Shown here: positions 14,000 to 64,000 of the stretch, piece by piece | Position numbering within the stretch: the stretch's first letter is position 1 | How the letters are laid out: each line of letters opens with the position of its first letter | Notes under the pieces: model-generated | Database searches by the model: none | What the model was told of the DNA's origin: nothing | The model's input: only the letters and a program-made list of their open reading frames with translations | Source of the DNA: Psammoneis japonica | Taxonomy: Eukaryota | Length of the DNA stretch: 64,000 nucleotides | Reading direction: 5' to 3' | Assembly: GCA_008632985.1 (NCBI GenBank) | Contig: QPGO01000180.1 | Span: 35,332-99,331 of the forward strand | Translations under genes and position numbers: made by a program

Positions 14000-15545
14000 C
14001 CGACAGAATTCAAAACTTCTGTTCCAGTTTTGCTTGGCTCGGTCTCAAGTTGTTGCAGCAGGCTCATTCTCAAAGCCAAAATTCCCCCCACCACACCGCG
14101 ACACGACTGTGCACCCTCTCTTGTGCCCCTTCTTCTTCTTTGCACCACTCCCCCTCCTTCTCCTTCATCATTTTTTGCCAGCCACCAGTTTCCAATGACG
14201 ACACACGCCATGGCTTGATGATGATGATGAGGTGATCTCTTCTTCACTTGCTGGCTCTGTTGCATGTCATGCCTGAAATGCACCTCCACAAAGACTGCCA
14301 GCCAATGTGCAAAGACAGAAAACCACAGAGCAAGCTGGGGGGGTCTTGCTCCTTGAAAGCTTGCTCGAAAGATGCGTGCTGCAGCCACAACACTCTGCCA
14401 CACCATTGTGTAAAGGGTGCCATCTCCTTCTTGCTCCTTTGTGCTTGTTGCCAGCCTGAGAAGCTTCTTCCAAGCTTGTGTGTTGCCAGAGTGATGGCGG
14501 CAAAATGGGTTGCTTGCTGTTGCACCAACTTGCCCAAAGTCAGCGCAAATGCGAGGGTGACCATGGGCACAGCACAAACAAGAGAGAGCAAAGAAAAAGA
14601 GAAAGAGGAGTGGGAAAAGCAAGGAAAGGAGCCCCCTCTCTTGTTTGTGGGTGAAAAAAGTGTTTTTGCATTGTGAGCATTGTGCACTGCTGCAGTTGCA
14701 CGTTTGTCCTGGTCATCCAATGAAGTGCTGGTCATTGATGACTTTTTGTCTGGTGCTGTCCCAGCCAATGATGTGCATGACAGGGTGCTGTCATGTGCCA
14801 AAACAAGCTTTTGCAGCAAAACCCACCACTCTGCCTGCACGCACAAATGAACAAAAGATTTGTGCCACATTTTGTGGCAAACTTGGCAAGGCTTGGGAGC
14901 ATGTGTGGGGCTGCATCACTGCTCTGAAGTTGACCAGAAGCATTGTGCTGACAGTGCAGGTGGTCTTGCCTGCAAGACAAAAGATGCAAGCAGCATTGAT
15001 TCCTGTGTGGATGACTGTTGCTCACCAGAATGTGAAAACGCTAAAGACTCTGTCGGTCTTGTGAACAAGCCATGGAACAGGAGTGCATTGTCATCAAGAG
15101 CACAACTTCACTGCACCATGGTTGGACAATCTTTGCTCCACAGTGCCCAGCTTGCTTCAATCAAACTGCACCACTGTGGTTCTGCACCAAAGTTTGTTGA
15201 GACAGGCAAGTTCAACCTGCTTGGCAAATGTCAGTGTGCTGTGTCAGACTGCTCTTGATCTGAATCCCTTCAGAATGGGTCTGATTTGTGTCTCTGATCA
15301 GATGGTTGAGACAGTCAATGCACAGCCATGCTGACTGCTGTGTGGCCTGTTGTTGTTTTGACTGCAGGAAATTGGCAATTGTGTGCTGCACTGTGTGGCA
15401 TTGAGTTTCACAGCTGAAGGAATGCAACGCACAACAGCTGCAGCAGAATGCAGCTGGTGGCACCATACAACAAATTAAGCCTTCAAAAGATTTCAACCCA
15501 TGTTGTAACGACTGCAGCATGTGTTGTCCTCCGACACGCACCACT
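14000..15545. mobile_element. Degenerate ~1.5-kb insertion of unknown class, TpA- and CpG-depleted
   Basis: Abrupt switch to TG/CA-rich, TA/CG-poor sequence between two normal genes, same signature as recognisable TE remnants; no protein motif recognised. Confidence 0.55.
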
Positions 15546-15855
15546 GGGCGAGCGAATTCTGAATTACTCGACATAGATGGAGGAAAGGAGAATGATGAAT
15601 CTCGATTTCCTTCCTTGCTTTTCAATTCGAAGTAACTATTTGGTCTAGGCATCAAATAATACAGCATGCTTTTTTTCTATTCGTAGCAGATTAATTAGTT
15701 ACATTGCCCTAAAGTCGCGCTTTGAACATATAAACGGTTGATCAGTCGATACCGAAGTCCAGTCTCGTTTTAGGTAGCTTCATGAGAAGACAGCGCTCCT
15801 CATGTTGCAGCCATGTGGGGACGATTACACAGAAAAGCAATTCAACGTTTCCAAA

Positions 15856-19170: not shown

Positions 19171-19619
19171 GAGCTATTCGTACTTCTTTTTTTGTGTTCC
19201 AAATCGTACCCGAGAATTTCCTCGATTGTATTCAGTTGTCATGAGCAATACTCAAAAACTTCTCGCGATTGTTGTTCGTCAGACTTTCACGGGAGCGTTA
19301 GTCCATTCTCATCGTTGAATGGCGCTTCCACGCATCACGCAGTCACAATTTTTCAATTTTGGCGATGAGGCGACAAAATTTTTTGGCGATGCTGACGACG
19401 AATCCAGTCGCGCGAATCATCGCGCGTCGAAAGCGTACTGTAGTCTGTCCTGGTGCGCTTTGGGTTATTTCGACGCGTGGCAATCAGCGGTTCACGACTC
19501 ACATGCATGACTGCGGTGCGTGACTGATGGATGAGTCGGGCGATCCGCCACACGAAGATTTCATGTCATTTCATCACCCAGTGTCCAGAATCATCGCCTT
19601 CTTTCAGTACTTGCAAAAG

Positions 19620-20624
19620 ATGACGATTATCGCTCTGTTCCTGTATTCGCTGATTGCCAAGTTCACCTCGTCCCCCACTGACTCTTTCTGTGAGGGGTGC
19701 GTAGTGGTTGCCGACAAGAAGAAAGAGACATCCGCTTTGGCTCGAGCCCGTGCACTTGATGCACCGCCTCCCAAATCATCTCTTGACGGAGAATACGAGG
19801 ACTACGATTGGTGGGAAGAGCACCAGGACCTACTTACTGAAGCTCGAAAGGAATGGGGTCATCTTCATGACGATTTGTACAACGTGGATTCGCAAGAGTT
19901 TGAAGAACGCTTCATCCACCAAGAAATCCGAAACGCAATCCACAATGCTAGAGTAAATCCATCGCCAGAAAGTGAGGCAGCTGTTCGTTCTTTGTGTATC
20001 AAGACAAATGCACCGGGAGTCTACGCTTTTCGTCTCTTTACGCAAGAATTCATCGACATGCTTCTCGAGGAACTAGAATTTCAAGAGGCGTCTGGCATTC
20101 CCGTGCGTCGACCAAACGGAATGAATCGATATGGAGCCATTCTCGCAGAGCTTCAAATGGGTTCTATATTGGACCATCTTATCGAACGTTACTTTCGTCA
20201 CTTGGGAACGCTCTTGTTTCCTCGTTCTGTTGGTCCTCATGATGCACAAGAGAATTATTCGTTTGTTGTGAGATACAAACAGGGCCAGGACGTGGCACTT
20301 GCCGAACATGCGGATGCGTCAACCATTACGGTAAATGTTTGTCTCGGAAAGGATGGATTTCAGGGAGGCTCACTGTATTTTAAAGGCGTTCGCTTTTCGG
20401 AAACGGCGGACCAGAAGGAACGAAATGAGATTGAAATGCAGCCAGGCATGGGTGTTATTCATTTAGGCGGTCATTTGCATGGCGCGTTGCCTTTGACGGG
20501 AGGTGAACGCATCAACATGATTGTGTGGATGTTTGGAGAGGATGGCTTTGTTCGAACAGCACCTTATTCGGAAAAGGAAGTTGACGAGTTTGCAGAAAGA
20601 CGATGGCTCCACAACGAGCTGTAA
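19620..20624 (+). CDS. 2-oxoglutarate/Fe(II) oxygenase (OGFOD2/PLOD-like), probably ER-resident
   Basis: RPNGMNRYG, FVVRY, HxD (EHADAS), distal His (HLHGAL), GGERIN; C-terminal HNEL. Confidence 0.88.
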   Translation: MTIIALFLYSLIAKFTSSPTDSFCEGCVVVADKKKETSALARARALDAPPPKSSLDGEYEDYDWWEEHQDLLTEARKEWGHLHDDLYNVDSQEFEERFIHQEIRNAIHNARVNPSPESEAAVRSLCIKTNAPGVYAFRLFTQEFIDMLLEELEFQEASGIPVRRPNGMNRYGAILAELQMGSILDHLIERYFRHLGTLLFPRSVGPHDAQENYSFVVRYKQGQDVALAEHADASTITVNVCLGKDGFQGGSLYFKGVRFSETADQKERNEIEMQPGMGVIHLGGHLHGALPLTGGERINMIVWMFGEDGFVRTAPYSEKEVDEFAERRWLHNEL

Positions 20625-20699: not shown

Positions 20700-21872
20700 C
20701 TATTCCTCAGAGCAAATAATCTGAACTTTCATTGTAGACTTTTCTTCCGCGCACCGTACGGCTTCGTCAGCCTGAGACAACGAAAACGTCTTGGTAATGT
20801 ATTTCTGCACACGTAGCGGTTGCTGGCCGTTGTTATCTTCTCTGTCCTCGGTGTCTGGCAGATTCAGCAATTCCAGCGCTCTGTTAATTGGACCGCATCT
20901 AGATCCCACAACCTTTAGTTCGTCAATGACAAATGGCGCAGCATTAAATTGCTCTCCAGCCGCGCACGTGCTTTTTAGCACAAGGGTTCCCATAGGTCGA
21001 CAAAGTCCGGACGCCAAGGACAAACCAGCAGGACTACCGGTCGCTTCTACCACGACATCATACTTGGCAGCATGTTCTATAGATACCCCGTTAAATGCAC
21101 TGGCATCCTGACATTCTGATACTAGCTTTCCTTCCACTCCGCTGTCCTTGACTAGATCCAGCTTGTGTTGGTGTTTTCCAAATAGCACCGGTTTCGGGTG
21201 AGTCGAAGAGCGACCAAATCGAGACAGGTGCTCTCTTCCCAGCACTTCAGCAATCATGAGTCCGAGTTTGCCATCGCCAAGTATCGCAACCCGATCTGGA
21301 TGCTTCTCGTCATAACGAACAAGACCCTGTTCCACAATACGGCACGCCGCGGCGAGGGGTTCTGAAAACACTGCAATTTCGTTCGGCATTTCATCGGGTA
21401 CAACATGAAGATTGCGAATGGGTAGCGTCAGATATTCTGCCATGGTTCCGTTTCGGTTCAGGATACCCAACACGGATCGGTTGGGACAGTGATTGCGAGA
21501 CATTTTTGGGCACCGTTGATCCAGCCCAATCGAATTGCTGCAAACAGAGCAGTCGTTACAGCCCACGTTAATGTCACCACAGACACGTTTTCCAATCCAG
21601 TCTCGATCCTCTGGGTTGGTTTCCTCCACAATACCGACAAACTCGTGTCCCAACACGCCGTGAAATCCCATGTACCCTTTCAGAATTTCCAAGTCCGTGT
21701 TGCATACACCTGCACGCAGAACTCGGATCAAAGCAAAGCCAGGACCATCGAGTGTGGGCTTTGGAAGTTTCATAACTTTCCCAAAAGTGTCACCAGCGTT
21801 TGGGATAGCAAACGCAAGCATTGTTGCCTGCTCTGTGGAGGAGTTAGCATCATCGGAATCATCGGTGGCCAT
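20700..21872 (-). CDS. Zn-dependent medium-chain dehydrogenase/reductase (alcohol/polyol dehydrogenase-like)
   Basis: GVCNTD, GHEFVG, structural-Zn cysteines (CNDCSVC...C), EPLAA, GDGKLG, VGSRCG; intronless. Confidence 0.9.
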   Translation of the reverse strand: MATDDSDDANSSTEQATMLAFAIPNAGDTFGKVMKLPKPTLDGPGFALIRVLRAGVCNTDLEILKGYMGFHGVLGHEFVGIVEETNPEDRDWIGKRVCGDINVGCNDCSVCSNSIGLDQRCPKMSRNHCPNRSVLGILNRNGTMAEYLTLPIRNLHVVPDEMPNEIAVFSEPLAAACRIVEQGLVRYDEKHPDRVAILGDGKLGLMIAEVLGREHLSRFGRSSTHPKPVLFGKHQHKLDLVKDSGVEGKLVSECQDASAFNGVSIEHAAKYDVVVEATGSPAGLSLASGLCRPMGTLVLKSTCAAGEQFNAAPFVIDELKVVGSRCGPINRALELLNLPDTEDREDNNGQQPLRVQKYITKTFSLSQADEAVRCAEEKSTMKVQIICSEE

Positions 21873-22084
21873 GGTTGGTTTCTCTCTTTTCTTTGTTTTT
21901 TGTGGGGGTTGGTCTGAGGTCCGTCGGTCTGCTATTACAGTCACGAGTCAGTCACGAACTAGGTCTACAGTAAAGGACAAAGTCCAAGATAAAAGGCGAA
22001 AACGTTCAGACAGAGGGGCAACAACCCAAGAACCACTACGCGATTTGACCCCGATCGCCAGTGCGATCCCTCTAGGGCCCTAGG

Positions 22085-25000
22085 TCACTTTTTAATCGCT
22101 AGATTCCTAAGTGATTGCATAGCTTCCTCAAATGTGCCGCTAGCGAGAATCCTCTTGGGATCGTGTTCATTGGTTTCCACGCAGATATCCAATACTGCGG
22201 AAGCTAAATCAGATTTGTCTCCGTTTGTAGAAAGTAGCCGTGCACTGGTATTCCAGATCAACTCAAGAATATCCTGTGGTATGCCCTCCAGCCGTCTTTT
22301 GGAAGCTTGCGTGCTGACCGACGTGTCAATGGCAGTGATAGCCAAACTCCGAGCAAGCATGGCCGCGGCCAATAGGAAGAAGAAACTTGTTGCCGATCCT
22401 CGAACCGCAGATTCATCGGATCCAATATCAACTAAAACGGAAGCAAACATATCTAGCAGTTGTGGAGCATCGCGAGAAGAGCCGTCTTTGCGGGGCAAAC
22501 CACCGGTAAGGTTTGCTTGAAGGGCCTTGGCCATGGCTGAGCGGTCCGTCACTTCCGATGGCAGAGTCAGGAGACGAAGTACTTGTCGGAGTCTGCGAAT
22601 CGTCTCGCATCGAATCTTGACCGGGAAACCTGGCCGCAAGAAGAACCGGACGCATTCGGTAAATGCGTCGTACTGAGCGCCATATTCCAAGTAAGCATTG
22701 CACAGGTCACCAACAAAGTTCTCTAGCGCTGTCATCTCTTTTCCGGACAGAGTTTCATTCTCGTTACCAAATAGGCTTTCCACGACTTGTTCGTCCTCGG
22801 GGCTTGTCCTTTCGGCAGATTTCTCTCTTTTCTTTGCGGCTGGTGAGTGATTTACGCAAGCTTTGATAAAATCTTGTTCAAGAACCACCCTTCCAGGATT
22901 TTGAGTATACAGAGCAAACAAAAGGCTGGTGCAATCTCTGATTCTTTCATCTCGGATTACCGCCTCCGCGTACAAGCACACGTTGAACAAGTGGTAAAGC
23001 TTTGCGCCGTTTGGGATTTGTCTCGAATATAAATTCTGGTTTTGCTCCATTTCCGCCAATAGTTCCAGACTAGAAATAAGAATGGGAGTCACATCATCAC
23101 TATCATCGTGTGGTGCTGCTGTCTCAGATGGAAGAGCATCAGAAAAAACTGAAAGGACTTGCCACAGCCACAAGTTCCCTATTGGAAGAAGCAGCTCCGA
23201 TGAAGCGAGGGGACGCTTTGATTTTTGGCTATCAGCCGTACTTAACAGAGTGTCCACGTCAAAGTAAGGGATGTTGAGACTGTCACCCAAGCGATTCGCT
23301 GCAAGCTGGTAGCTATGACTGGTCTGGATTCTGGATTGCTCCGACGCATACATTTCCCGGAGAAAAATTGTTGGTAGAGGCGATTGGAGTTCTACTTCAG
23401 ATTCTTTTGACAACGTCTGAAAGAGAAACAGATTTCGAAAGACAAAGTCAGCAGTGGCCTCCTCCCCGTGCTGCAATCTAGCCAAGAGGGTAAACGCGAC
23501 CGAACGAATCACTGGAACACATGTATTGGCTTCCGAGTCAAGGCGAGTTTCGACGAGAAATCGACAAAGAGCCAGATGTGCGTTATTGAGCCACCCGATG
23601 CGTGCCCTAGAGACATGCCTGGAAGTTGACAATTCTAGAGAGACTGTTTTGACCTCGTATGAAGATATTATGTCGAGCAGCCATGTCCGACACTCGGTGA
23701 CTAATTCTTCGTCTGTGTCCAAAGCGATCGCATCTAACCTCAACAAGAACTGTAGAAAGGTTTCCAAGAGGCGGCACGACAAAGCTTCGTACAACACAGA
23801 TGACGCATCAGGACAGTCGATAGCCAACAATCTTATGGCAGCTGACTCTAAACAAGATTTCACGTCGACATTTTCCCACATGGCGCGGCCAACCTCGCAA
23901 TATCGTTTCGCTTCCAGAGGTGCCTTCTTCACTCCCCTTTCTAGCAGCAATGACGATGAAACAAGACGAAGACACGCGGCAAGCATTTTGAAACCGTCTA
24001 GGTCGACGTCATTTGCCGACTCCAGCCGAGGAGATGCCCGTGACTTTAGGTAGTCAATGCATTGGTTCGCCAATGAAGCCAGCCAATCGGTATTCAATAT
24101 GGCGTCGCTTGAAAACCGTCCGTTTGACATATTCGGATCAGACCGAGCCATTGTTGCGCAGTCACAGGTAAGAGCAAAGGCAGATAGATATTCCGCCGCG
24201 ACGCTGTAGCACTCTGGCCGCTCCGAGTCGTTGCACAGCAAAGCTTTCGAGATATGTGGCACAGCGAGAGTGACAAATGTTTGCACATGGTTAAGGGCTA
24301 GCCCATAGCGCACCATTGTTCGCCACCACATGGCTGTGTGTCTTTGGACTTTGTACTCGATCTCTGATGCGGCTGTCTGACCCAGGATTGGAGGTGCAAC
24401 GAGATCAAAAGGCAGTGATGTTGCAACAACTCGAGATTGGCGTGTTAATGTATTGAACAAAATCAGCAACGGGACTGACAAATAATCTGAATTTGAGTCG
24501 CCACTGTTGTTGACATCTGGATTGTTGTAACTTGTTGACGGGACCAAATCAAGTCGCTGCAAAAGACGTGGTATGATCTCGGCATGCTGTGCGATTGCTG
24601 AGGCAGCACCGGGGGATCGCACAGCCAGCATTGCTAAAATTCCGCACACGGCTTCAATTGCTTCATCTGGTAGGTTGTACTGCAGAAGCTTTGCCAGACG
24701 TGGTAAAATCCGCATACGGGAAAGAAGAGTCCAGCTAGGGTCCTTGTGAAAGGCTTCTCCGTCTGCTTGGGCAGAGCTTGTAGAGGAAAGTGTCGAATAC
24801 GCCACTGTATCCTTACCCATTTTGAGTGGTTCTCCGATGCTAACGTCACTATAGCATTCATACAAAGGGGGAGTCAATATACAGTCGTCCATAAAGTACT
24901 CTTGATAAATCTGAGCGGCATTTGCAATCGTGTCTGTTTTGGAGTGCTTAGTCACATCGACAACGTGATCCGGAGGGGCTCTCAAACACATCAAGGCGTA

Positions 25001-26083: not shown

Positions 26084-26279
26084 AATTAACTTTTGCTTTT
26101 CAATTCCTTCAAGAAACAGACTGCCGCATCGGAGTACTACCATATGAATGGATGCGCTCTGTTTGTCCAAAAGTTTTTGTGGTTTCGTCTTTATCTTTCG
26201 TCTTCTGACCGGCCGTCTGTCAGAGGTCGTGTCAAGGTGGCGCTTGATTGCGAGAGCATTCTTGGAGAGTGGAAATCTG

Positions 26280-27190: not shown

Positions 27191-27199
27191 GATCATTTG

Positions 27200-31780: not shown

Positions 31781-31782
31781 TG

Positions 31783-42932: not shown

Positions 42933-42937
42933 AGTTG

Positions 42938-49734: not shown

Positions 49735-49929
49735 GGTTGACGTCTGTCAATCCACCTGTCGACTGCACGCAATCGTGCGCTTCAATTTTCAAATTCCGCC
49801 ATCAAAACTCTGCTCGACATTGCAGTCATAATTTTCAGTCAACGACTTTTGCAACAACAACAGCCACTAGTTTACAACCTTGAGCATCAGCTCTTTCGAC
49901 ATCTGCAGTTGCACATTGGTGTGGCAAGT
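49735..49929 (+). repeat. 5' LTR
   Basis: Ungapped match to 56970-57164 with 14 mismatches by manual alignment. Confidence 0.95.
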
Positions 49930-50430
49930 GGTCATCGAGCCCAAACGCAGTGTGCAGAGTCTTCACCAGAGCTGCACCGATCCACCGCGTTCTCGTCGAA
50001 CGCGACAGTCATCTCAAGCCGTCGATCGTCCGTTTCAAACGGAATCGCCGTTCATCGATTCGACAGACCTCTCCAGTCTATTGACGTCAACACTGTGTGC
50101 AGCTGAGCCTCCCTCCTTCATTGATGGGCTCGCACGCATTTTCCCGCCACCAGAGCCAATCCACGGAGCCGGAATCATCATCGTCAAGCGTCGTCATTTT
50201 GGCCGTTGCGATGCCAAACCCGGATTGAGTCGTTTCGAACTCTCCAAGTCTGTGCCAAGTCAAGACCTGCCTCTCACGCTATTCGACAACGATGCTCTTG
50301 TCACCGATTGATTGTTGAGCTTCTGCGGCAGTCTCCCAATGATGCGGCGTCAAGAACTTCATTTTGCCGTTTGTGCTTCAAACTCTACGTAGCTTCAGCA
50401 CCAAGTTCTACGCATTGATTCAAATCCACC

Positions 50431-53400: not shown

Positions 53401-56400
53401 CCGTCCTCCAAGGTTCGCCCACTTTCTCCACAATGTCTCTTCCATGCAGACGGCATCAAAGGACATTTTTGGGGTGACAGTGAGATTTTCAAGGTTTGTT
53501 TCGTAGACACGCCGGAGTTGACGCTCGAGTGCGACGAGCGCTCCCACTTGCCGGTTGGCTGCGCGACTCTCGGTTCCATCCATGCACCACAAGTCAATTT
53601 GAGCGCCATTGGCAACCCAGACAACCTCAATCTGTCTGCTGGACAGAAGCTTCTCAATGAATGGCATGCGCGCTTTGGGCACTTAAATTTTCCCAAGATC
53701 CAAGCTCTGCTCCGCGGCCATCCATTCGAGGCCATGAAATTCAAGGCAGCATCCAAATGCGACATTCCAAAATGCGACACATGCGAATGTGCCAAGGCTC
53801 ATTGCCGTTCTTTGAAGTCTGCCATTCACAAATCCGACCCCAAGCGCGATGGAGTGTTGAAGGCTGACCATCTCAATCCCGGCCAGTCCATCAGCGTTGA
53901 CCATTTCGAATCGCGTCTCAAGGGCCGCACCTGTGATTCACACGGCAAACCGTCCTCCCAGCAGCATGTTGGCGGCTGTGTCTTTGTCGACCACTCCTCT
54001 GGTTACATCCACGTTGAACACCAAGTCGGTTTCTCCGCTGTCGAGACTGTTCGAGCGAAACAGGCACATGAGACCATGGCAATGGGACACGGCGTGATTG
54101 TCCAAACTCACCTCACTGACGGTGGCGCTTTCAAGGCCAACCAGTTCGTTTCCCACATCCACAACTCCCAGCAACACATGCACTTTTGTGGTGCCAACGC
54201 TCATCATCAAAATGGTGTTGCGGAACGCTCCATTTGGTCCATGTCCAACATGGCTTGCGCCATGATCCTCCATGCTTCGATTCACTGGCGTGGCGGCATC
54301 GACAGCTCTCTGTGGCCCATGGCAGTGCACTGTGCTGCCCACATCTGTGATGCCACTCCCGGCGCCCATGGTCTGTGTCCCGCCAACATCTTTGCTGGCT
54401 CCACCGTCCCACGCCACCGCCTCCGCGATCTCCATGTTTGGGGTTGTCCTGTCTGCGTCTTGGATCCCAAATTACAGGAAGGCAAGAAACTTCCCCGTTG
54501 GCAGCCGCATTCTCGGCGTGGTGTCTTTCTTGGACTCAGCAATGTTCACATCAGTGAGGTGCCATTGGTCCTCAATCTCAACACTGGCTCCATTGCTCCC
54601 CAGCACCACGTCGTGTTTGACAATCTCTTCACCACGGTTGCTTCGATCGCGAGGGAGAGCGAATCGCCGGATCACTGGGAAGAATTGTGGTTGGAGAATG
54701 CCACTCAAATTCCCTTGGACTCGTCCGATGGACCGTTGTTCCTTCAAGACGACTGGCTCACTCCTGCTGAACTTGAACAGAAACAACAACATGAGACCAG
54801 GGAACGCAATGTTTGCACTGCACTTCAACAGCAGCAGAGCTTGCCGAAACCCACTGAGAAACCAAAACCTGCAGCAGATCCTTTGCCATCTCCAAATCCA
54901 CCGCCATCCACACCATCGATGCCAACAACTGCAGTTGATCCATCACCGACACCACCGCCACAAACACCGTCGCTTCAAAACCCATCATTGCCGACACCTC
55001 CAGTTGACGATCCTCCACCTTCAGTCGTGTGTCCGCCGTCTGCTGCTGGCAATGGTCCGGCACGTCAGTCCCATCCATGACTGCTCCAGTCCCACCTGAA
55101 CCCTCAACCACGACTGAGACACCAGGGGTGCGCTGATCCCAACGGTCGAACAAGGGCACGCACACAACTGCTTGTTTCGCTGATGAAGCACATCTGGCTT
55201 CTGTCATCCCTGACGATGTTGGAGACAACAGGCTCAGCTTGCCCATTTGGCTGAGATCCAGACTGACTGTGATTCGGGTGTTTTGGATGTTCAGGACCCG
55301 CGGATCTACGCCGCTGAGGTCAAACGCGATGCGGATGATCCAAACATTCGCGAGGCTCTCTCGGGTGATTTTGCCAAGCAATGCATTGAAGCCATGAAGA
55401 CGGAGGCATCTGCTCTTGTCCATCGTAAAACGTGGCAATTTGTGAAATGGGAGAAGTCAATGAATTTGCTCAAGTCCACATGGGCATTCAAGTTGAAATG
55501 ATTGCCGGATGGCACGCCGCTTGAGTTCAAAGTGCGATTTTGTGTCCAAGGAGATCTGCAAAAAGAGGGAGTTGACTGCTTTGAGACCTGCACTCCAGTG
55601 GTCCAATGGTCGACTGTCCGTCTTGCATTGAGCACTGTCCCCACAAGAAGGATGGACCACCCGTCAGGTTGATTGCACCAACGCTTTTGCGCAGGCCGAG
55701 ATGATGGAAGACGTTTGTGTCGAACCACCCAAGTGTTTCGCTCCCAGCTCGGGATCCAATGTTGTCTTGAAGCTGCTCAAGAGTCTCTGCGGTCTCAAGC
55801 AAGCTCCCAAGTGCTTCTTTGACAAGCTGCATGAAGGATTGTTGGAACGAGGATGGACCCAGTCGCAAGTCGACCCGTGCCCATTTTTCAAGGACGGTGT
55901 GATTTGTGCAGTCTGTGTTGATGACACTGTCCTCGCTGGCAAGAATGGAGCCGCTCTAGAAAGTGAGATCAAGGCTCCAGGCATCCAAGACGACGAACAA
56001 CGCCATGCATTCGAGTTGCGAAATGAGGGAGAAGTTGGTGACTTCCTCGGTGTCAAGATTCGCAAAACCGGACCCAAGGAATTCTTCCTTGCCCAGCCTG
56101 GACTCATTGATGAGGCCCTCAAGACAGCTGGTGTGGAAGATTGCCGCTCTTCTCCCACTCCCAGTGCTGCCTCTCCATGTCATGCGGATAAAGAGGGAGC
56201 CGAATTCGACGAGAACTGGGACTGCCGTTCCGTCATCGGCATGTTGATGCATCTGTCATCCAACTCCCGACCAGATGTCTGCTGCGCCACGCATCAAGCC
56301 GCCCGCTTCTCATGTGCTCCCAAGCATTCTCATGCGATTGCGGTGAAGCATGTTCTGCGACACTCACAAGGTGCCAAGGACAAGGGACTCTATCCATGCC

Positions 56401-56962
56401 CTGGCGACAACGAATGTGTTGGTTGTTTCGTTGACGCCGACTTCGCCGGCCTCTGCGGTCACGAAGACACTCAAGATCCGGTCAGCGTCAAGTCCCGCAC
56501 CGGACATGTCATCTTGCACTGCGATTGTCCTGTTTTGTGGGTTTCTAAGCTACAGACGCAAACAGCACTCTCCACTGTGGAGGCCGAGTGCCTTGCTCTG
56601 TCGGCTGCGATGCGCGACCTGATTCCGATTCGTGAAATTTTGAAGGAATTCAAGTGTCATGTTTTCGGTCTCACGGATTACAAGACCCCTGCCACCACCA
56701 AGTCCAAGGCCTTTTCAGATGTAAAGGATGGTGCGATCCCTTCTTCAGCCTCAAGTTTGCGAAAATGGCCAAGTTGTCTCCACGCACCAAACACATTGGC
56801 ACGCCCTGTCATTGGCTCCGCACCAAGGTCGAGGCTCTTGAGATCCGGATTGAGCCTGCAGGAACTGATTCCCAGTTAGCTGATCAATTTACGAAGGGAC
56901 TCATTGCTGACAAGTTTGAATCTGGTCGGCCAAGTCTCTCAGGCTGGCAGCTCTGTGGTTGA
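50431..56962 (+). pseudogene. Copia gag-pol with stops and frameshifts
   Basis: Zn knuckle CNACGAPDHW, protease VVFDTGAS, WHARFGH...CDTC, integrase SVDHF/HQNGVAERSI, RT STWAFK/KVRFCVQGDLQ/CVDD, RNase H FVDADFAG/LSTVEAE/QLADQFTK. Confidence 0.93.
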
Positions 56963-56969
56963 GAGGGAG

Positions 56970-57164
56970 AGTTGACGTCTGTCAATCCACCTGTCAACTG
57001 TGCGCAATCGCGTGCTTCAATTTTCAAATTCCGCCATCAAAACTCTGCTCGACATTGCAGTCATAATTTTCAGTCAACGACTTTTGCAACAACAACAGCT
57101 GCCAGTTTGCAACCTTGAGCATCAGCTCTTTTGACATCTGCAGTTGTACATCGGTGTGACAAGT
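56970..57164 (+). repeat. 3' LTR
   Basis: Follows the PPT directly; followed by TSD CACAT. Confidence 0.95.
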
Positions 57165-57743
57165 CACATGGGCAATGTCAGCATGGTTTTTCAATCCATT
57201 TGCTGCTCTTTTTCATGGGTGCCCATTTTGGCCCCTCTTTTTTTGCCGCTTTTCGGCCATGGTCATCGCCTTTCCTCTCGGCGTGTCAAATTTTTTCCTC
57301 CTCTCACCGAGATGTGCCATGTGCAGATGTGCATGTTCACATGCTGTGTTGCATTGGATGCACCACAGTTGTTTGGCCGATGCTGATTGTGTGCACACAC
57401 ATTCATTCTCGGGAGGGTTCAGTCAAAACGAAAATTGTCACCACGTTTTTCGGAGTTTTCTCGTTTTCCCGCAAAATGCGTGCAATCACGATGATGAATG
57501 GTGATGGAAACCGACCCGTCACATGGGACCAAATGTTCGATTCATCCTTGTCTTCATGCATTGGACAAGCGTGGGAATCGGGTGGGGTTGCGTTCGTCGG
57601 AACCGACACAATGTTGGTCAACGCTTGTCCTTCCTGAGCAATTTCACATGCTGGTCGCTTTCACTTTCCAGCGTGTTTGTTCTCACTTTTCCTTTTTTCA
57701 AGATTGGACGAGCCTTTGTTTTCCGACATTCTGTTGTTCCACC

Positions 57744-59948
57744 ATGAGCCAAGCCCATGTTGCTGCCATCAACCATGGCAAGCTGTCTGCCCTCCTCATG
57801 GGCATGCTCGAGTTTGTCTCGATGACGGACCGTGACACCCAGAAGGAGCTTCGTGACCATGTCTTTGCGACTTTGGACCTTTTCTGCATGGTCCACAATC
57901 GCAAGATCACGGTTGTGGTGAAACCTTGCCCCAGGCAGCACACTGATGGGAACTTGAGGTGGATTGGGAGCCTCTCGGATGCGATCGGTGAGGTCATTCT
58001 GATGTCCGGCCGTTGGACTTGTTTCCAAGGCCACGTCACCACTTTAGTTCCCCAAGGCGCCGTGGATGCTTGCCACCTGCCCAAGTGTGAACTAAGCCCT
58101 GACGAAATTGACGGTCCTGTTGGCAACGACGGGACTGGTGACCCTGCGTCGATGGGTCGTCTCCATTTTGGGAATCCTGCTGGACCGGCCGAGCGCCCTG
58201 CCATTGTTGCGCTCCCGCTTTTCCCACCATTCCCTGTGGGCATTGCTCTTCCCATTGACTTCGACCCGGCAAATCCCCCAGCATCCCTTGCTGCTAACTT
58301 TCTGCTTGGAGCGGCATGGGCTGAGGGTGTCGACTGGTTGCTGCAGCACAACACTTCTGTCTCCGTCATGGAAGGTGGCCCTGTGTTTGAGCAGACTGGC
58401 TTTGCTGTCATTGATGAATTCTCTGGTCTAGAGGTCTACAATCTCGATGACAACGATGTGCAGATGCTCCAGCCTCTAACGGATTGGTGTGCTCTAGTCA
58501 AGAGCACGATGGATGCCTTTGCGAATGAGACTTGGAGGCAGCTCGGTGGTGACGAGCCTGCGCATGCACAAGCTCCTGCCGCTCCAGCTCAGGGCACCAA
58601 CGGTCTGGTCCCAAACTGTGCCATCAACATCCCTCGCCAGGATTCGAAGAAGGAGTTGGATCAGAAGTTGAGGGCACGTGATGTTGGTTGCCGCTGGTCT
58701 CCATGTGCGTTCCGAGCGACTGCTGGCACTGGTCCGGAAGACCTGCCCATGATCATTGTCGGCGAGCTTGCGGACAATGCAGTCAAGATCCTACAAGACA
58801 CCTCGGCAGCTGATGCCAACCGAGACCTTGCGGACCTTGTTAAGATGGCTGTTGTGGCTTCGGCTTGTGGTGACAGTGGTCTTGATGCTGGAGTCGACTG
58901 CAAGCACACCATTGTCAACAAAGCCCACGCGGATTGTTTCCGCGGCTTTGACGTGGTTGCGGAGCCTCCGCAGTGTGGCCAGGCTTCTTGCCACATGAAG
59001 TTGTCAATCCTCCCCTTCCTTCTGCCCCAGACTGCATCATCTTCCTTTGCCAGCCTTGAGGAGGAAGGAAGGACGCTCCATCGGGTGCTTGCTGATGGAT
59101 CGGACTGCAAGATCCCCGACGACGTGAAGGCAAGCGACCTTTACATCCAAGGGAGGATGGATGCCACCAGCGATCTGTGGTCGGCACTGTGCAACTTTCG
59201 TTGTGTCTTCGGCTGTTGGATCAAAGACTTTGATGATGCCGAGTCATGGCAATCATTGGATGCATGTGCGAAGGTCCTTTGGTCGCATCCTGGCCACACG
59301 TGGCTCAAAAACCTTGAGGACCCGAAACCAGTCGTTGCCAGCATCCTGGATGATTTCCAGACCATTGTCAAGGTTTATTTCGAGATTGGGGACTCCCCAT
59401 TGTGCCGCCAGGTGGTTGAAACCGAGCGCCCACTGAGCCATCAGATTGCGAAGGACGCTCATGCTTCAGTTGAGTCCCTCATCGCGGATCTCAACACGGC
59501 CATCACACGGGGCAAGCCTCTCACCTTTGCTGAAGCGTCTACATTGGCCCTTGTCCCTCTGGGCAGTTCCATGTTGCCCCTTGCTGGAGACAAACAGGAC
59601 AAAAAGACCAAGTCCGGTCAACCTCCTAAGAAGAAGCCGCGCACGGAGGACACGACCGACAGTGCGGCCGAGCTCTGCAAGGCAATGGGCATGCTTGCTT
59701 TTTCGGGAACGAGGTGCCCTCCTGCCTGTCCAGTCTTTTATAAGAAGAATGGATCAGACCAGGAGGAACGTGTTTGCATGCATTTTTGTGCTGAAGGATG
59801 CTGCTGCAAGTTCCCTGACTGCCCGAAGCCACACCCATCACCGGTGTCCAAGATTCCGGAGGCAAAGCGAGACGCCTTTTGCCAATTTGTCCGGGACACC
59901 CAGGGACTCGAATTCGTCCCAGGAAAGGGCCCAGATGGTGCGTCATAA
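57744..59948 (+). pseudogene. gag-like ORF1 of the YR retrotransposon with a C-terminal CCCH-like finger
   Basis: Long ORF, likely start MSQAHV; ends CMHFCAEGCCCKFPDCPKPH; lies directly upstream of RT. Confidence 0.7.
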
Positions 59949-60070
59949 ACACATTTGAAGCTCACAGTTTCTGCACTGCCCCTGTTGCTAATTCAGTGTT
60001 GTTTTAATCTGTGCTGTCAATCTTTTGACCAGTCTGTGTTATCCCGGATGGGTCAGTTTGTCTCATTGCA

Positions 60071-62932
60071 ATGGACACAGACGACGACAGCAAACCGGAG
60101 CATGAAGTGGTAGATGCAGAGTCAGAGGAGGCCGGAATGAGCATTGAGGATGCTGTTCCAGCCACAGATGCTGCGCTTGCCACGTCTGTGACGGAACCAC
60201 ATCCGAGCCTACGTCGGCTTGCGGTTGCGCCGACGGCACCCCTCGAAGAGAGAGAGTTGGTGGAGCCATTCCCGACTTTTTCGTTGGTTCATAAGAAGAA
60301 GGGTGCGGATTTGATCCCAACCATCAACAATGGTTTCAACAAGGCAGCTCATGAGCACTTTGCCAATGCGCAACTGTCTCCAGGGGTTCGCGCCAAGTTG
60401 GACCAAAAATTCGGCAAGGAAAATTTGAACCAATGTTTTGTGTCCAAAGCCTGTCTGCGTCATGTGCTGTTGCCACTCTGGAAGTCGGGACACCTGTCAC
60501 CACCAATCAAATGCATGAATCCTGCGTCTGCCAGCATCCATTTTGGTGAGGATTGGTTGAATTTTGGCGCCGCTGTCCCGGAAGTGGCTGAGTTCATGGG
60601 TCCAGTCCAGGAGTGCGGCGATGTTGACTTCAACCCGTTGCGTGGCTGTCCCAAAGGGTGGCAAATGGAGGCTAAAGTCAACACTGACCAAGCAGCAATG
60701 ACAAGTGCAGCACTGTTGCACTTCGACGGAGACCCGGCGAATCTGGTCCGCTGGGTTGGCGGACCACATGTTGGCGAACACCGCGACACAGACAGAATCC
60801 TCCGTTTCACACAAGGCCGAGTCCCCAACGAAACAACAGCACATGTCCGCCGCATCTTCCAAGACGGGGCGCCAGCGAAATGCAGTGCTGCTTTCTCGGA
60901 AGCCAACTTTCAAGCAGCCTTGCGCCATGGCAACCACAAGACTGTCGACGCAGATCCTGCAAAGACATCGTCAGCAGTTGTCAAGGACAATCGCAAGGGG
61001 TTCACATTGCCATTTGACCAGCGGCTCGTGCCGCACTTGCTGAATTGCCATCTAACTCCACAAGGAATGGTGGATTTGGACAAGAAGCACAAAAGCCCGC
61101 ATCCAATCTTTGACAGCACGATGCGCCCGACACCGGGCGGCATGGCAATCAACGACACGCTAGATCTGGAGAATGAACCTCCAATCACATTCCCATCAGC
61201 TGAAATGGATTTCATGGTGTGGATGTGGAACATGAGGATCTCATGCCCACATGAGGAGATTTGCCTGGGGACGATGACGTGAGTGGTGCGTTCCGTAACA
61301 TGAAGCATCACCCGAACCTCGTCGGCATGCACACCAGCGTCCAATGCGGACCAGGCATCCTGCAAATGGGTTGCACCTTCGGGGACAAGACAAACCCGCT
61401 TGACTGGGATGCCATTGCAAATGCAAGGCAATCCCCAGCTCAACATTTTTGGCGTGTTCCCAATGTCGTCGAGCCAGCTCATCAGTGCCTGCCGACCATG
61501 TCGTTTGCAAAGCAGCCCACTGCCAAGGAGATTGCATCCTTTTCTCCCGCGGAAGCCGATGCTGTTAACCCTGGAGTCTTCCTTGATGACCATCGTCTCC
61601 CGCCAACCTGTGAGCACCATGTCGACGACAACTTCTGCGGCGACATGCGCGACTTCATGGAGCGGACCGTCGCGGCGAGTGCTTTGGCGGTCTGTGTCCC
61701 ACTGAGTTTCCCTCGGAACGAGACACCTGATTTCCTCAGCAAAGAAAAATTGGATGCGCTCCATTCACATTTGCGAAGAGCCTTGGGCCGGCATTTCAAC
61801 TCAAGAAAGATGTCGGTGGGCATGTCACCGCACAAACGGGAACAGTTCCTTGAAACACTCCATGAGTGGCTCGGCAGACAGCGATGCACACTGCTGGATG
61901 CAGCAAACCTGCATGGTCAATTTGAATCCCATGCAAGGCATTGCCCATGGGCTCGACCCCATTTTTTTGCACTCCAGAACTCCATGGGTTGAGCGATGGT
62001 CATCCAGTGCACCATTGTGAAGCGCATCCTCGAGCGCCAAAATTTGAAATCAAATTTTGAAACTCAACTGCCGAGCCAACTGCGGAATGGGCTGCCGAGC
62101 TTGCTCATGCATGCCCAAGCCCAGCTCCTCTACAAGTTGAAAATTGAGACCCCGATGACCTCCGATGCATTGGACATGATCAAGGAAGTGACATCATACA
62201 TCCAATCAACTCCAGACCCATGGTCGGGCACCGACAGGATGCGTTGTCCCTCGGGTGCCCCACTGCCAAGCAATTGGAGACACCAGCAACGTCGGCGGAG
62301 GTGCCTGTTGCTGCAAGCTCAAATTTTGGTTCGCTTTTCTTTGGGGACCAAAAATCGCAAAGGGTCTCAGGCTGCGGAAGTCAACGGATCTGGACTGTGT
62401 CCATGTCAATGCAGTGGAGTTCATTGTCATCATGCTCAAGTTGGCAGCCATTGTCGTTTGCATGGAGAATGTGACTCCAGAACGGGCGCATGAGTTCTTC
62501 CGGGACGGCATCGTCCCACTGCATCTGGTCATCAGAAGTTGCTCAGATGACATGGCATCAGTCAACCGGACAAACAAAGCCACTTCGAAGTCGCCACAAG
62601 GGCAGCGATTCATGTGGGTTTTTTGTGAATTGCTGCATCATGCGCGTGCAAACCCAAATGGCGATCACATCTTTGGCAACGAGAATTTTGTCACAGATGA
62701 CATCTCACGACCTTCTGTTTTTGCCCTGATCTCGAATCGTCACCATTCTGAACAGCTGTTTCGGAAGCATCCCTTTCTGAAGACCTGGGACTGTTTCCAG
62801 CCGAGTCAAGAGCTCTTGCAGCTCCTCTCCTCACAGCTGTCTGCCAAGCACAGAACGGCACCCCAGATCCCAAGCAACTTGGGACAGCTTGTTCCCACCA
62901 AATCCATTTCCTCCACTTTTACAAGAGTGTGA
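60071..62932 (+). pseudogene. RT-RNase H of the YR retrotransposon, frameshifted
   Basis: PIFDST, DDVSGAFR, TFGDKTNP, HHVDDN; RNase H IGDTSNVGGGA, HVNAVEF, SDDMAS, DHIFGNENFVTDDISR over four ORFs. Confidence 0.88.
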
Positions 62933-64000
62933 GGTGGGATCTAGAAGATCCGGAAATGACTGTGGTTGGCAAGGACCTGAAACATTGCCAATTGGTGCCA
63001 GCTGTGCATGCATCACATCTGGCAACCGGGGCCACCCTGCACTGTAAAAATGTTTCTACAGGTGCCATCAAGGAACACATCCACAACGTCTCCACGTTCG
63101 TGTCTCTGTTTGGTTCCAACTGTTGGGACGTCCGCAAGGACAACAGTGTGGACACCAAAATGGGATGGATCCTCAGGGGAGCATTTGATGAACTCCAACG
63201 GCACGACAAGGTCCCGGACCGACGTGAGTCGTGTGCATTGCTTGTGCAACAACATGCAACTTCAACAGCAGCAGACATGCGAGAAACCGACCCCGACGCA
63301 ATTGAGGTGGTCCTCGCTGACTGGTTTGAGATCGGCCCAATGGCAGGCCTGTGCAGTGTTGAGTGGGCACAGTCCAATGACCACTCAGACCTGGAGAATC
63401 CCAGGCTCAACATCTTCAAGGAGACATGCGCGTTCTGCCTCGATGATGTGCGCATTGAGACCAAGGACAAGCACCAACACTCTGGGGCTGATTGCCTCAC
63501 CCCCAAGCAAGATGACATCGAGAGCATGTTTGTCACATTTCGAGACCAGAAGAACCAGCAACATGGCGAGGAGTGCCAGCTCGCCTTGAACCTCACGGGC
63601 ACTCACGACTTGGTCAAGCCAATGCTTTGCGTGATCCAATGCTTTGCACGGGTCCGTGGTGAAGATGACAAAACCTGCCCCCTGGCACTCTGTTTTGATC
63701 CCAAGGAGAACAAGTGCCGCCTTGTGACATCCAAGAAAATTGAGGCCCGCGTGCGCCAAATTGCAGCAGAGGTGTGCCACCTTGACCAGGTCAAGGATAA
63801 AAAGGCTGTCAGCAAATGGTCAGCACATTCCCTCCATGTTGGAGCCTGCAACATCCTCCATGAGATGAATTTTAGTGCTGAGCAGATTAATCAGCTGCCA
63901 AGATGGCGATCCGACGCCTTTGTGGCGCACCTCCGTAACTGCTTGGGTCTCTCTCAGGCCCATTGCCGAGCCCTCGATAAAGCGGCACCTGTGCCGTTCT
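62930..64000 (+). pseudogene. Tyrosine recombinase with mutated catalytic residues, open to the window edge
   Basis: Manual translation: AGLCSVEW (cf. GLR.SE), SAHSLHVGA (cf. HSLRVGA), RWRSDAFVAHLRN (cf. ..YLR). Missing from the ORF track because there is no stop. Confidence 0.9.

Follow-up and report, generated by a model that had tools for sequence, protein, structure and literature searches.

In Neurospora and other fungi, RIP permanently inactivates transposons by chromosomal transitions at a single dinucleotide on both strands and leaves the dinucleotide composition strongly skewed, with abrupt borders; it converts C:G to T:A at CpA, so that TpA is created, and it mutates all copies of a duplication. 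ADAR hyperediting and AID/APOBEC in animals likewise subject selfish nucleic acids to transition hypermutation of a deaminase type that depends on context; they act strand-specifically, ahead of integration, on RNA or on single-stranded cDNA, with G>A as the outcome for APOBEC. Closest among the described systems is that of Bigelowiella natans, a chlorarachniophyte whose integrated NCLDV and virophage DNA undergoes TpA hypermutation (Mettrop et al., bioRxiv 10.64898/2026.01.13.699255). As far as the main text of that preprint goes, 230 of 231 viral-region SNMs in mutation accumulation were A>G or T>C, all on TpA and yielding TpG/CpA; foreign or mobile DNA alone was affected, host sequence mutating at the normal rate, and the lasting footprint is a decrease in TpA with an increase in CpA+TpG, TpA-poor coding sequences being enriched in DDE and RT domains. 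ADAT2 was proposed as the enzyme (10.64898/2026.01.13.699255).

Here we analyze a single 64-kb stretch of DNA (the window) from the diatom Psammoneis japonica. Its TE-derived or silenced DNA has very probably been subject to a very rapid A:T to G:C change that is nearly confined to TpA, acts on either strand after insertion and runs to near saturation. In all likelihood this is the signature seen in B. natans, although the latter is a rhizarian and the host studied here a stramenopile. De novo events were seen in B. natans, whereas the diatom process is known from its fossil footprint alone. Depletion is near saturation (O/E 0.00-0.15) in all TE-derived blocks of the window, compared with a Rho of 0.45 given in the preprint for the NCLDV region and a virophage region that is not depleted. 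A preference for TAY over TAR and an accompanying CpG decay are described here; the main text of the preprint contains neither the word 'context' nor the word 'trinucleotide'. No diatom report of a TpA-erasing signature was found in the literature. The signature has previously been reported only once, in 2026 and in an unrelated alga, and is of a very young kind; that publication lowers the novelty of our finding.

Results

The initial annotation of the window had described TE-derived blocks that are almost free of TpA, rich in TG and CA and altered on both strands, with normal genes between them, and counting bore this out. Compared with the density of the genes lying between the blocks (genic TpA frequency 0.0399), 2 TpA were observed versus 58.7 expected in block B1 (13994-15466), 22 versus 355.4 in B2 (26193-35107), 31 versus 263.9 in B3 (~37800-44419) and 66 versus 542.3 in B4 (~50400-64000), strand not being applicable to blocks; the binomial log10 P values are -22.7, -122, -75 and -151, respectively. 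In a per-kilobase scan of the window, 0-12 TpA per kb (O/E 0.00-0.20) were counted inside blocks versus 24-57 (O/E 0.40-0.81) in fully genic kilobases, and the adjacent host genes are spared. Low-TA runs extend over 14001-15400 (2 TpA), 26201-35200 (24, matching the two dozen counted earlier by eye in 26.4-35.0 kb), 37801-39000 (6), 39401-40600 (5), 40801-44400 (7), 50401-58400 (31), 58601-59600 (5) and 60201-63800 (14), and the longest TA-free gap in the window measures 1779 bp. TpA depletion is confirmed as real and extreme. Block borders are abrupt at 13993/15466, 26192 and 35107. The two youngest elements show a gradient at their left ends instead, and they are less depleted at the edge facing active genes.

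Inside the blocks, the O/E of TG and CA climbs to about 2 and the mass balance closes, lost TA plus lost CG equalling the gain in TG+CA (dTA + dCG + d(TG+CA) = 0.6-8.7 per 1000 dinucleotides in five sub-blocks). A TG/CA ratio of 0.89-1.25 and a runs test for the two products (z -1.4 to +1.6) identify both DNA strands as targets. The older blocks have lost much of their CpG as well (O/E 0.03-0.15 in 26-35 kb), a feature missed in the initial annotation.

Sequence context was computed from residual block sites versus the genic baseline, rather than from a family consensus. Block/genic tetranucleotide counts reveal strong losses of ATAT (0/101), ATAC (1/181), ATAG (4/142) and GTAC (3/87) and better retention of CTAG (17/62), CTAA (26/111) and TTAA (11/60). 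TAT and TAC are nearly wiped out, the survival of TAA and TAG being 5-10 times greater; TGA/TCA are hardly increased in the blocks and CAA/TTG are increased. The target is best described as 5'-TAY-3' (equal to 5'-RTA-3' on the other strand), with TAY apparently hit harder than TAR.

The same sequence was recovered from X1, a sequencing run whose platform is not on record and which is possibly the assembly's own data. Of sampled 31-mers of the window, 97% were found in X1, and its contigs over 27256-31144 and 31218-35183 (word depth 66.6-67.9; flanking gene 61.9) represent the TA-free sequence with 4 differing letters over 3889 bp and 1 over 3966 bp. Read confirmation is thereby obtained in part: the contigs agree, and their support is not fully independent because X1 may be the source of the assembly.

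B1 (1.47 kb) is an unclassified repeat or TE relic that is low in CpG too, and B2 (8.9 kb) is old degenerate repeat DNA, now mostly single-copy; no Pfam matches were found among the ORFs of either block. B2 contains a pseudogene fragment (31783-32156, plus strand) copied from the neighbouring host-gene segment 35344-35722 (plus strand, 74.5% identity), which overlaps a minus-strand ORF (35569-36564), has normal TpA density and served as unmutated reference. A clean functional host-gene copy could also reflect purifying selection. The 21 TA of the parent gene appear in the aligned pseudogene as CA (7), TG (5) or retained TA (2), such that TA is replaced by TG/CA at 12 of 21 sites. Of the duplicated segment, only the copy within the block is mutated, which speaks against duplication itself as the trigger.

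B3 (6.6 kb) takes in the right part of a DDE_3 element together with tandem repeats and a repeat of high copy number. The element is a multi-copy DNA transposon (36763-40749, minus strand) with 142-bp terminal inverted repeats and a TA flank on both sides, encoding a DDE_3 transposase (39437-40606, minus strand; Pfam E 6.7e-14). It has lost TpA in part and along a gradient (density 21.2/kb in 36763-37800, 8.1/kb in 37801-40749). In X1, its summed depth is 208-409 (667-bp bins) and that of single variant contigs 128-196, versus about 62, and loose contig ends lie at its edge at 36763. Compared with the window, other genomic copies of the family show 109 transitions and 7 transversions, and the 40 difference rows listed include at least 8 pairs of neighbouring sites with TG<->CA exchange; positions 40050-40051 occur in three states, the window reading CA, an X1 contig TG and an X2 contig TA. 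Three tandem units of ~269 bp (40835-41642, strand not applicable) contain an ion-channel gene fragment (Ion_trans_2 ORF, 41173-41706, minus strand; Pfam E 8.6e-08) and differ mainly at TA- or CG-derived sites. Units 1 and 2 are distinguished by 10 TG<->CA doubles, 13 CG-type, 1 TA-type and 7 other transitions and 4 transversions, compared with 0 TG<->CA doubles in a genic tandem repeat.

A Copia LTR retrotransposon (49736-57164, plus strand; LTRs 49736-49929 and 56971-57164, 93% identical) carries ORFs for gag-pre-integrase and SH3 (52150-55077) and RVT_2 (55632-56876). Its interior holds 30 TpA in 7041 bp and the 966-aa Copia ORF exactly one Tyr, as first noted. At 25 conserved-Tyr columns of 33 Copia homologues the window copy has Cys 12, His 6, Phe 3, Leu 2, Ala 1 and Tyr 1, i.e. 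Cys/His at 18 of 25, with His mostly where TAY is also read on the opposite strand. Other conserved residues are kept (Cys 14/15, His 21/25, Trp 12/13, Gly 47/53), and conserved Arg has become Cys, His, Trp or Gln, attributed to CpG decay. These columns and the parent/pseudogene pair, which supply polarised comparisons, give TA to TG/CA as the direction of change. The 13 differences between the LTRs are all transitions (5 CG-type, 3 TA-type, 2 TG<->CA doubles, 1 other). The LTRs contain 3 and 2 TpA (194 bp each) versus 3.4/kb in the interior 51401-56970, so that part of the interior loss may predate insertion. About 90% of TpA is gone from the element at a CpG O/E of still ~0.75-0.8, and CpG appears to decay to TpG/CpA in parallel to TpA loss, only more slowly. 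Relatives are not equally TpA-poor: 80 related Copia loci elsewhere have a TpA O/E of 0.46-0.89, with CpG O/E down to 0.25, and TpA O/E falls below 0.3 in 1 of their 1102 1-kb windows versus 127 of 253 in this window. TpA poverty therefore does not seem to be inherited from the Copia lineage.

The remainder of B4 (57165-64000, strand not applicable) consists of unclassified element(s) extending past the window end. An 816-aa ORF (57498-59945) with 4 Tyr matches 258 library proteins at E <= 0.001 (best 1.4e-61), the only Pfam domain of the homologues being zf-CCCH in 2 of 6; its Tyr content is 0.49% versus 0.53-2.93% in 32 homologues. The list of affected classes drawn up initially stands for Copia, the TA-flanked DDE_3 transposon and two host-gene-derived fragments and is unconfirmed for a YR retroelement and a LINE, as no YR or LINE domains occur among the Pfam matches, obtained for 4 of 132 stop-to-stop ORFs (>=100 aa) in the blocks.

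Discussion

LTRs, tandem units and family copies diverge almost solely at TA- or CG-derived sites, which indicates that the process acts in chromosomal DNA after insertion. With a DNA transposon and fragments of host genes among the targets, no RNA intermediate is needed. The polarised comparisons, the post-insertion divergence, the TG/CA symmetry, the normal TpA of related Copia elements elsewhere and the agreement of the X1 contigs support the host process postulated at the outset, by which A:T would be converted to G:C at TpA in TE-derived DNA. Judging from a single gene/pseudogene pair and the edge gradients of two elements, targeting looks domain- or chromatin-based rather than dependent on pairing of duplicates.

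Deamination of adenine in DNA is tentatively favoured as the most likely route. Adenine would be deaminated enzymatically to hypoxanthine, which would then be copied as G; a TadA/ADAT2-like or other CDA-superfamily deaminase is a candidate enzyme, and the natural U-A-C anticodon-loop context of TadA/ADAT2-like deaminases resembles TAY. In agreement with the initial annotation, no deaminase, methyltransferase or TET/JBP gene was found within the 64-kb window.

The same process could proceed by attack on the T of TpA, a TET/JBP-type dioxygenase oxidizing T in RTA to 5-hydroxymethyl- or 5-formyl-uracil that mispairs with G, so that T is changed to C (TA>CA, and TA>TG from the other strand). The double-stranded signature would be identical, the sequence fits A or T as target and the context is writable equally as RTA; moreover, dinoflagellate 5hmU and kinetoplastid base J occur preferentially at T before A. 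We nevertheless consider this route improbable. The sole 2OG oxygenase of the window (19527-20624) matches OGFOD2-like proteins rather than TET/JBP, no report of 5-hydroxymethyluracil in diatom DNA was among the matches listed in a full-text literature search on diatoms and transposable elements, and 5hmU normally pairs with A, for which reason near-complete conversion would require a strongly miscoding derivative.

Error-prone repair confined to heterochromatin, in which a Pol eta-like polymerase puts G opposite T at WA motifs, would affect both strands as observed; TA is the classic hotspot of A>G errors by Pol eta, and WA-motif misinsertion during patch repair constitutes phase 2 of antibody somatic hypermutation. 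It is very unlikely here, because the specificity is much tighter than WA, AA being without consistent depletion (per 1000, 79.5 in genes and 80.8, 70.6, 95.5, 55.0 and 59.5 in blocks) against a 7- to 28-fold drop in TA, and because saturation of >90% of sites and an LTR pair almost without other substitutions are hard to reconcile with patch synthesis.

Editing before integration, in which retroelement RNA would undergo ADAR/ADAT-type A-to-I conversion or cDNA would be deaminated and reverse transcription would fix the change, is highly improbable, in keeping with the initial rejection of reverse transcriptase error and RNA editing. The targets include retroelements, and known RNA adenosine deaminases prefer U 5' of the edited A, according to the preprint on B. 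natans (10.64898/2026.01.13.699255). However, the changes are just as evident in a TIR DNA transposon, in fragments of host genes and in tandem repeats formed in situ, the LTR pair of a single Copia insertion has come to differ at TA sites since it inserted, and the sense strand carries both TG and CA products (Cys 12, His 6; TG/CA 0.92). In addition, TAG, the favoured triplet of ADAR, which prefers a 3' G, is among the least depleted triplets. A sequencing or assembly artefact (a miscalled modified base), TA-poor donor DNA or selection against TA hardly comes into consideration: the assembly may have been built from X1 itself and its technology is not on record, but X1 contigs whose depth resembles that of the flanking gene show the TA-free sequence too, a per-strand miscall would be expected to yield a 50:50 TG/CA mix instead of a single clean contig, the pattern is common to unrelated element classes and a resident host-gene copy, conserved Tyr to Cys/His changes disable the Copia proteins, and copies within the genome diverge at exactly these sites.

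Deamination of 5-methylcytosine is active in these blocks too (CpG O/E 0.03-0.15 in B2), as it is in the related Copia loci, and feeds TG/CA, but it cannot remove TpA and is slower than TpA loss in the Copia element. Unlike ADAR and AID/APOBEC activity, the diatom process appears to be post-insertional and strand-symmetric, extends to DNA transposons and leaves TAG less affected than TAY. The initial term 'RIP-like' holds by analogy only, as the mutation type is the opposite, A:T to G:C with destruction of TpA, and the host-gene copy outside the block is untouched. The loss of Tyr codons and of TAA/TAG stops would leave long spurious ORFs, and the replacement of conserved Tyr by Cys/His would disable the copies permanently, a RIP-like outcome reached via opposite chemistry.

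Results

The window falls into two compositional states. Genic kilobases contain 24-57 TpA (observed/expected frequency, O/E, 0.40-0.81) with normal CpG and O/E values near 1.0-1.3 for TG and CA, whereas the flagged transposon-derived blocks contain 0-12 TpA per kb (O/E 0.00-0.20) and reach O/E values of up to about 2 for TG and CA. On 200-bp bins, low-TpA runs extend over 14001-15400 (2 TpA), 26201-35200 (24), 37801-39000 (6), 39401-40600 (5), 40801-44400 (7), 50401-58400 (31), 58601-59600 (5) and 60201-63800 (14), and the longest gap in the window without any TA measures 1779 bp. Given the genic TpA frequency of 0.0399, block B1 (13994-15466) has 2 TpA where 58.7 are expected (log10 P -22.7), B2 (26193-35107) 22 instead of 355.4 (log10 P -122), B3 (37800-44419) 31 instead of 263.9 (log10 P -75) and B4 (50400-64000) 66 instead of 542.3 (log10 P -151). 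The initial annotation was accurate as to this depletion, according to the per-kilobase table, bin runs and block statistics alike, and the 966-aa Copia ORF does contain exactly one tyrosine. The older blocks are also nearly devoid of CpG (O/E 0.03-0.15 in 26-35 kb), a loss absent from that first description, and GC content rises to 0.51-0.58 across most of 50-64 kb. The TA-free zone begins at 26193; other repeat copies, as represented by their contigs, part from the window near 26297, and a unique gene contig reaches 26341. A spill-over of the process into some 100 bp of flanking unique DNA (26193-26297) is possible, the probability of a chance occurrence being about 0.015 by our own estimate from genic TpA density.

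Pfam analysis of the 132 stop-to-stop ORFs of at least 100 aa in the blocks yielded only Copia domains, DDE_3 and an ion-channel fragment (Ion_trans_2, 41173-41706). The Copia element carries gag-pre-integrase and SH3 domains (52150-55077) and RVT_2 (55632-56876) between LTRs of 194 bp each that are 93% identical (49736-49929 and 56971-57164). The DDE_3 transposase (39437-40606, minus strand) belongs to a DNA transposon with 142-bp terminal inverted repeats (36763-36904 and 40609-40749), and contigs from other copies of this element end exactly at 36763. It has a TA flank at each end, the Tc1/mariner-type target duplication. A 374-bp copy of a host gene inside B2 (31783-32156) is 74.5% identical to the neighbouring gene segment 35344-35722. 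Affected DNA therefore includes, as first proposed, a Copia element, a DNA transposon and host-gene-derived fragments; the YR retroelement and LINE named alongside them were left unconfirmed, because Pfam detected neither type of domain in the 132 ORFs. A PDB sequence search with ORFs 60029-61279 and 62752-63996 returned no meaningful match.

The 816-aa ORF 57498-59945 (plus strand) has relatives in a family of proteins of about 750-800 aa (about 770 aa), 258 of which were found at E <= 0.001 in a 50%-clustered library. These homologues contain no Pfam domain except a C-terminal zf-CCCH in two of six, and the family may represent an undescribed transposon protein family of microalgae. At five tyrosine columns the window ORF has W, F, Y, C and A, a comparison for which homologues only about 26-30% identical are too distant. 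Judged from assembled contigs of the public sequencing run X1, a large part of B2 now occurs only once at the 90% likeness level. A very high-copy repeat lies at 42677-43343 within a TA-free block (summed contig word depth 3581.7 versus about 62 for single-copy DNA), and a nearby 321-bp segment (43601-43921) matches its own reverse complement with 69% identity.

DNA free of TA is almost without TAA and TAG and thus gives rise to long false ORFs. In B2, 8 TAA and 10 TAG trinucleotides stand against 218 TGA. A 777-aa frame at 37000-39330 (plus strand) had no homologue among 5699 candidates. Gene callers would accordingly over-predict proteins in such blocks, in the form of long spurious ORFs and tyrosine-free pseudo-proteins.

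A possible assembly artefact was checked against the public run X1. This run, from 2019, may be the source of the assembly itself and is then not fully independent of it. It contains 97% of the 31-mers sampled from 24001-34000, and its contigs 27256-31144 and 31218-35183 differ from the window by 4 and 1 letters at word depths of 66.6 and 67.9, the flanking gene contig having a depth of 61.9. The X1 contigs thus support the TA-free sequence at single-copy depth, with the reservation that the run is possibly the assembly's own. Such depth on exact 31-mers suggests that the X1 reads are accurate, and a base misread on each strand would be expected to yield a mixture of TG and CA rather than one clean contig. 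In the single-copy part, the few differences between X1 and the window themselves involve CpG or TpA. At 30603-30604, for example, the window has TA and the X1 contig TG, a lone hint of de novo change. Contigs of the two other runs, X2 and X3, provide little or no cover over the blocks. X2, presumed to be DNA by guess only, covers the locus very unevenly, since one 1134-bp contig over the host gene 35340-36673 (ORF 35569-36564, minus strand) has a depth of 1534.7 and neighbouring genic contigs have about 4.

Three polarised comparisons, involving Copia homologues, a gene/pseudogene pair and relatives elsewhere, show that TA is the ancestral state. The first rests on an alignment of both Copia ORFs with 33 homologues of more than 1100 aa each, drawn from the best 50 hits, which are 45-61% identical and contain 1.7-3.75% tyrosine. 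At the 25 columns with tyrosine in at least 60% of these homologues, the window element has Cys 12 times, His 6, Phe 3, Leu 2, Ala 1 and Tyr 1, with TGY and CAY codons, while Cys, His, Trp, Gly and Pro columns are retained at 84-93%. Further replacements (Ile to Val 9/33, Leu to Pro 6/71, Arg to Cys, His, Trp or Gln 9/40, Asp to Asn 6/38) are consistent with TA across codon borders or with CpG decay. The 21 TA of the parent gene segment correspond in the pseudogene to CA in seven cases, TG in five and TA in two, that is 12/21 have become TG or CA. Eighty metagenomic loci with related Copia elements show TpA O/E values of 0.46-0.89; a value below 0.3 occurs in 1 of their 1102 1-kb windows as opposed to 127 of 253 here, and the median of the 33 closest loci is 50.7 TpA per kb versus 4.3 in the interior of the window Copia. 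No TA-depleted relative was present among the 80 loci, which were retrieved with patterns that held a Tyr/Phe position and favoured intact copies. Many of them (L061, L028, L023, L060, L068 and others) combine a CpG O/E of 0.25-0.35 and an excess of TG/CA with normal TpA, so that CpG decay is widespread there and TpA loss is not. In every block, the losses of TA and CG relative to the genic parts equal the gain in TG plus CA, with a residual of 0.6-8.7 per 1000 dinucleotides. The proposed A:T to G:C change at TpA is hence borne out by mass balance, conserved tyrosine columns and the gene/pseudogene pair, and also by LTRs, tandem units and family copies.

The changes postdate the copying and arise in the chromosome itself. 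The Copia LTRs differ at 13 positions in 194 bp, all by transitions: five at CG-derived and three at TA-derived sites, two adjacent TG/CA double exchanges and one other. Two 269-bp tandem units (1 versus 2) show 10 TG/CA doubles, 13 CG-type, 1 TA-type and 7 other transitions and 4 transversions. TG/CA doubles are absent from the genic tandem repeat that served as a control (153-731), a duplication of about 300 bp (153-456 versus 457-731, 85% identical). Contigs of other genomic copies over 24001-44000 differ from the window at 116 positions, 109 of them transitions, and 8 adjacent TG/CA pairs occur among 40 listed differences. All three states are seen at 40050-40051, where the window has CA, an X1 contig TG and an X2 contig TA. 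A double exchange of TG and CA arises when copies of a palindromic TA (or CG) each undergo one transition, independently and on either strand.

With a TG/CA ratio of 0.89-1.25 in the blocks, the strands are about equally affected; together with the occurrence of both Cys and His at tyrosine sites this substantiates the earlier claim that both strands are hit. Strand-coordinated runs were not detected in the blocks (z between -1.4 and +1.6), although saturation could hide them. Since a DNA transposon, host-gene fragments and tandem repeats in situ are affected, neither reverse transcription error nor RNA editing can be the general cause, just as the initial annotation had argued.

Survival of TpA depends on the neighbouring bases. 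When TA-centred tetranucleotides are counted in blocks and in genic parts of almost equal length, ATAT (0 versus 101), ATAC (1 versus 181), ATAG (4 versus 142) and GTAC (3 versus 87) have nearly vanished, with higher numbers for ATAA (16 versus 160), CTAC (22 versus 175), GTAA (21 versus 151), TTAA (11 versus 60), CTAA (26 versus 111) and CTAG (17 versus 62). Read on a single strand, TAT and TAC are hit far more readily than TAA and TAG. In agreement with a preference for TAY (TA followed by a pyrimidine), TGA and TCA are hardly increased in the blocks and CAA and TTG are, and tyrosine (TAY) has mostly become Cys, with His chiefly at sites that are TAY on the opposite strand too. TadA-type deaminases act in a U-A-C context, which the TAY context resembles. 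ADAR prefers a 3' G, and the TAY context argues against an enzyme with such a preference.

Three stages can be distinguished. In B1 and B2 both TpA and CpG are exhausted; in the Copia element and 57-64 kb about 90% of TpA is lost at a CpG O/E of about 0.6-0.8; and the multi-copy DDE_3 element still has 21.2 TpA per kb in 36763-37800 and 8.1 per kb in 37801-40749. TpA is therefore lost more quickly than CpG decays. Of the 13 positions at which the LTRs differ, 12 lie at target sites (TA or CG) and one elsewhere, which suggests, as a rough estimate, that mutation runs at about 100 times the background rate or faster. TpA is relatively better preserved in the LTRs than in the Copia interior, so that part of the interior loss may predate this insertion.

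Both young elements, Copia and DDE_3, are least depleted at the edge facing active genes; at the Copia edge (49930-51400) 7.5 TpA per kb remain versus 3.4 per kb further in. Of the gene pair, segment 35344-35722 has 21 TA and its copy 31783-32156 inside B2 only two. These edge gradients and the restriction of mutation to the copy inside B2 favour targeting of silenced domains over pairing of duplicates. Alternatively, the functional gene copy may be clean through selection and not through targeting.

Discussion

The observation of TpA loss is confirmed and its interpretation as a process acting on DNA is supported. We have shown a post-insertion, transposon-restricted A:T to G:C transition at TA(Y). 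As the enzymatic step we tentatively propose deamination of adenine to hypoxanthine in DNA, to which we would give slightly less than an even chance. That the same transition arises because the thymine of RTA is oxidized to a miscoding product is unlikely. Repair synthesis of the Pol eta type, with A>G at both TA and AA (WA mutagenesis), is very improbable: AA shows no consistent depletion, against a 7- to 28-fold fall in TA.

As stated at the outset, no responsible gene is visible: a deaminase, methyltransferase or TET/JBP gene is lacking within the 64-kb window. Its recognizable host genes encode RPAP1-like, ADH-like, OGFOD2-like dioxygenase, TspO and ERCC1/Rad10 proteins and two kinases. 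The alcohol-dehydrogenase-like gene (20700-21944) marks the host as a diatom: its best matches are diatom proteins (Cyclophora, Synedra, Nitzschia, Seminavis), with no more than 75% identity and 89-92% of the query covered. The ERCC1/Rad10-domain DNA-repair protein (8127-8918, plus strand, E 6.6e-29) and the OGFOD2-like 2OG-Fe(II) oxygenase (19527-20624, plus strand, E 7.3e-23) are not known DNA base-modifying enzymes, and no link to hypermutation was seen for either.

The closest precedent comes from the chlorarachniophyte Bigelowiella natans, where, according to a preprint, mutation accumulation placed 231 of 302 nuclear single-nucleotide mutations in two integrated viral regions, 230 of these 231 being A>G or T>C, all on TpA and at about 1000 times background (Mettrop et al., bioRxiv 10.64898/2026.01.13.699255). 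The preprint also describes an enrichment of DDE and RT domains in TpA-poor coding sequences and puts forward ADAT2 as a candidate enzyme; a TAY-type context goes unmentioned in its main text (Mettrop et al., bioRxiv 10.64898/2026.01.13.699255). Common to both cases are A>G/T>C changes on TpA that yield TpG/CpA and the limitation to integrated foreign or mobile DNA (here the Copia element, the DDE_3 transposon and relics of repeats), with normal host genes (here TpA O/E 0.40-0.81). Bearing the same signature, the diatom locus is a member of that kind.

The likeness to fungal RIP drawn in the initial annotation holds by analogy only. RIP converts C:G to T:A at CpA and thereby creates TpA, whereas in the diatom blocks TpA is destroyed and GC rises. 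RIP further depends on DNA methyltransferases of the RID/DIM-2 type and takes place before meiosis. RIP is triggered by duplication and mutates all copies, whereas here only the gene copy inside B2 is mutated, with the caveat of selection on its partner; this pair and the single-copy state of much of B2 leave a duplication trigger unsupported, and we reject RIP. RNA hyperediting by ADAR/ADAT would be strand-specific A>G in elements with an RNA intermediate. The blocks show neither restriction, and it is rejected on the TG/CA ratio of 0.89-1.25, the presence of both Cys and His at tyrosine sites, the involvement of the DNA transposon, pseudogenes and tandem repeats, and the divergence of the LTRs in situ. 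Deamination of 5-methylcytosine (CpG to TpG/CpA) is present in the blocks as a second, separate process, and CpG decay alone is rejected since it cannot account for TpA loss. AID/APOBEC enzymes convert C to U on single-stranded DNA in strand-coordinated C>T/G>A clusters and are dismissed because the excess change is A:T>G:C, such runs were not detected and C>T is confined to CpG.

TpA loss in diatom transposons was not reported in the full-text literature searched, which included two diatom papers and is of limited coverage, nor did a broader full-text search without restriction to diatoms return a report of the same process. The sole report so far of a TpA-removing mutational defence is the 2026 preprint on one chlorarachniophyte. 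The diatom locus is a new lineage for this signature described once and adds saturation-level footprints across transposon classes, the TAY context and co-occurring CpG decay. Given its saturation and the involvement of every transposon class in view, the signature is peculiar neither to one alga nor to giant-virus insertions. It is possible, if doubtful, that diatoms or at least this lineage harbour a DNA adenine deaminase system, directed at chromatin or at foreign DNA, by which 5'-TAY-3' is erased from silenced DNA, that this would be the same ancient system as in Bigelowiella, and that it would constitute an SAR-wide or older eukaryotic genome defence mirroring fungal RIP and a natural A-to-G editor of double-stranded DNA. 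TpA is normal in the related metagenome Copia loci, a set biased towards intact copies by the search patterns; if diatom genomes split likewise, their comparison would be a direct route to the responsible gene. Should the product of that gene indeed deaminate adenine in DNA, it would represent a naturally occurring A-to-G editor of DNA whose context, TAY, is defined.
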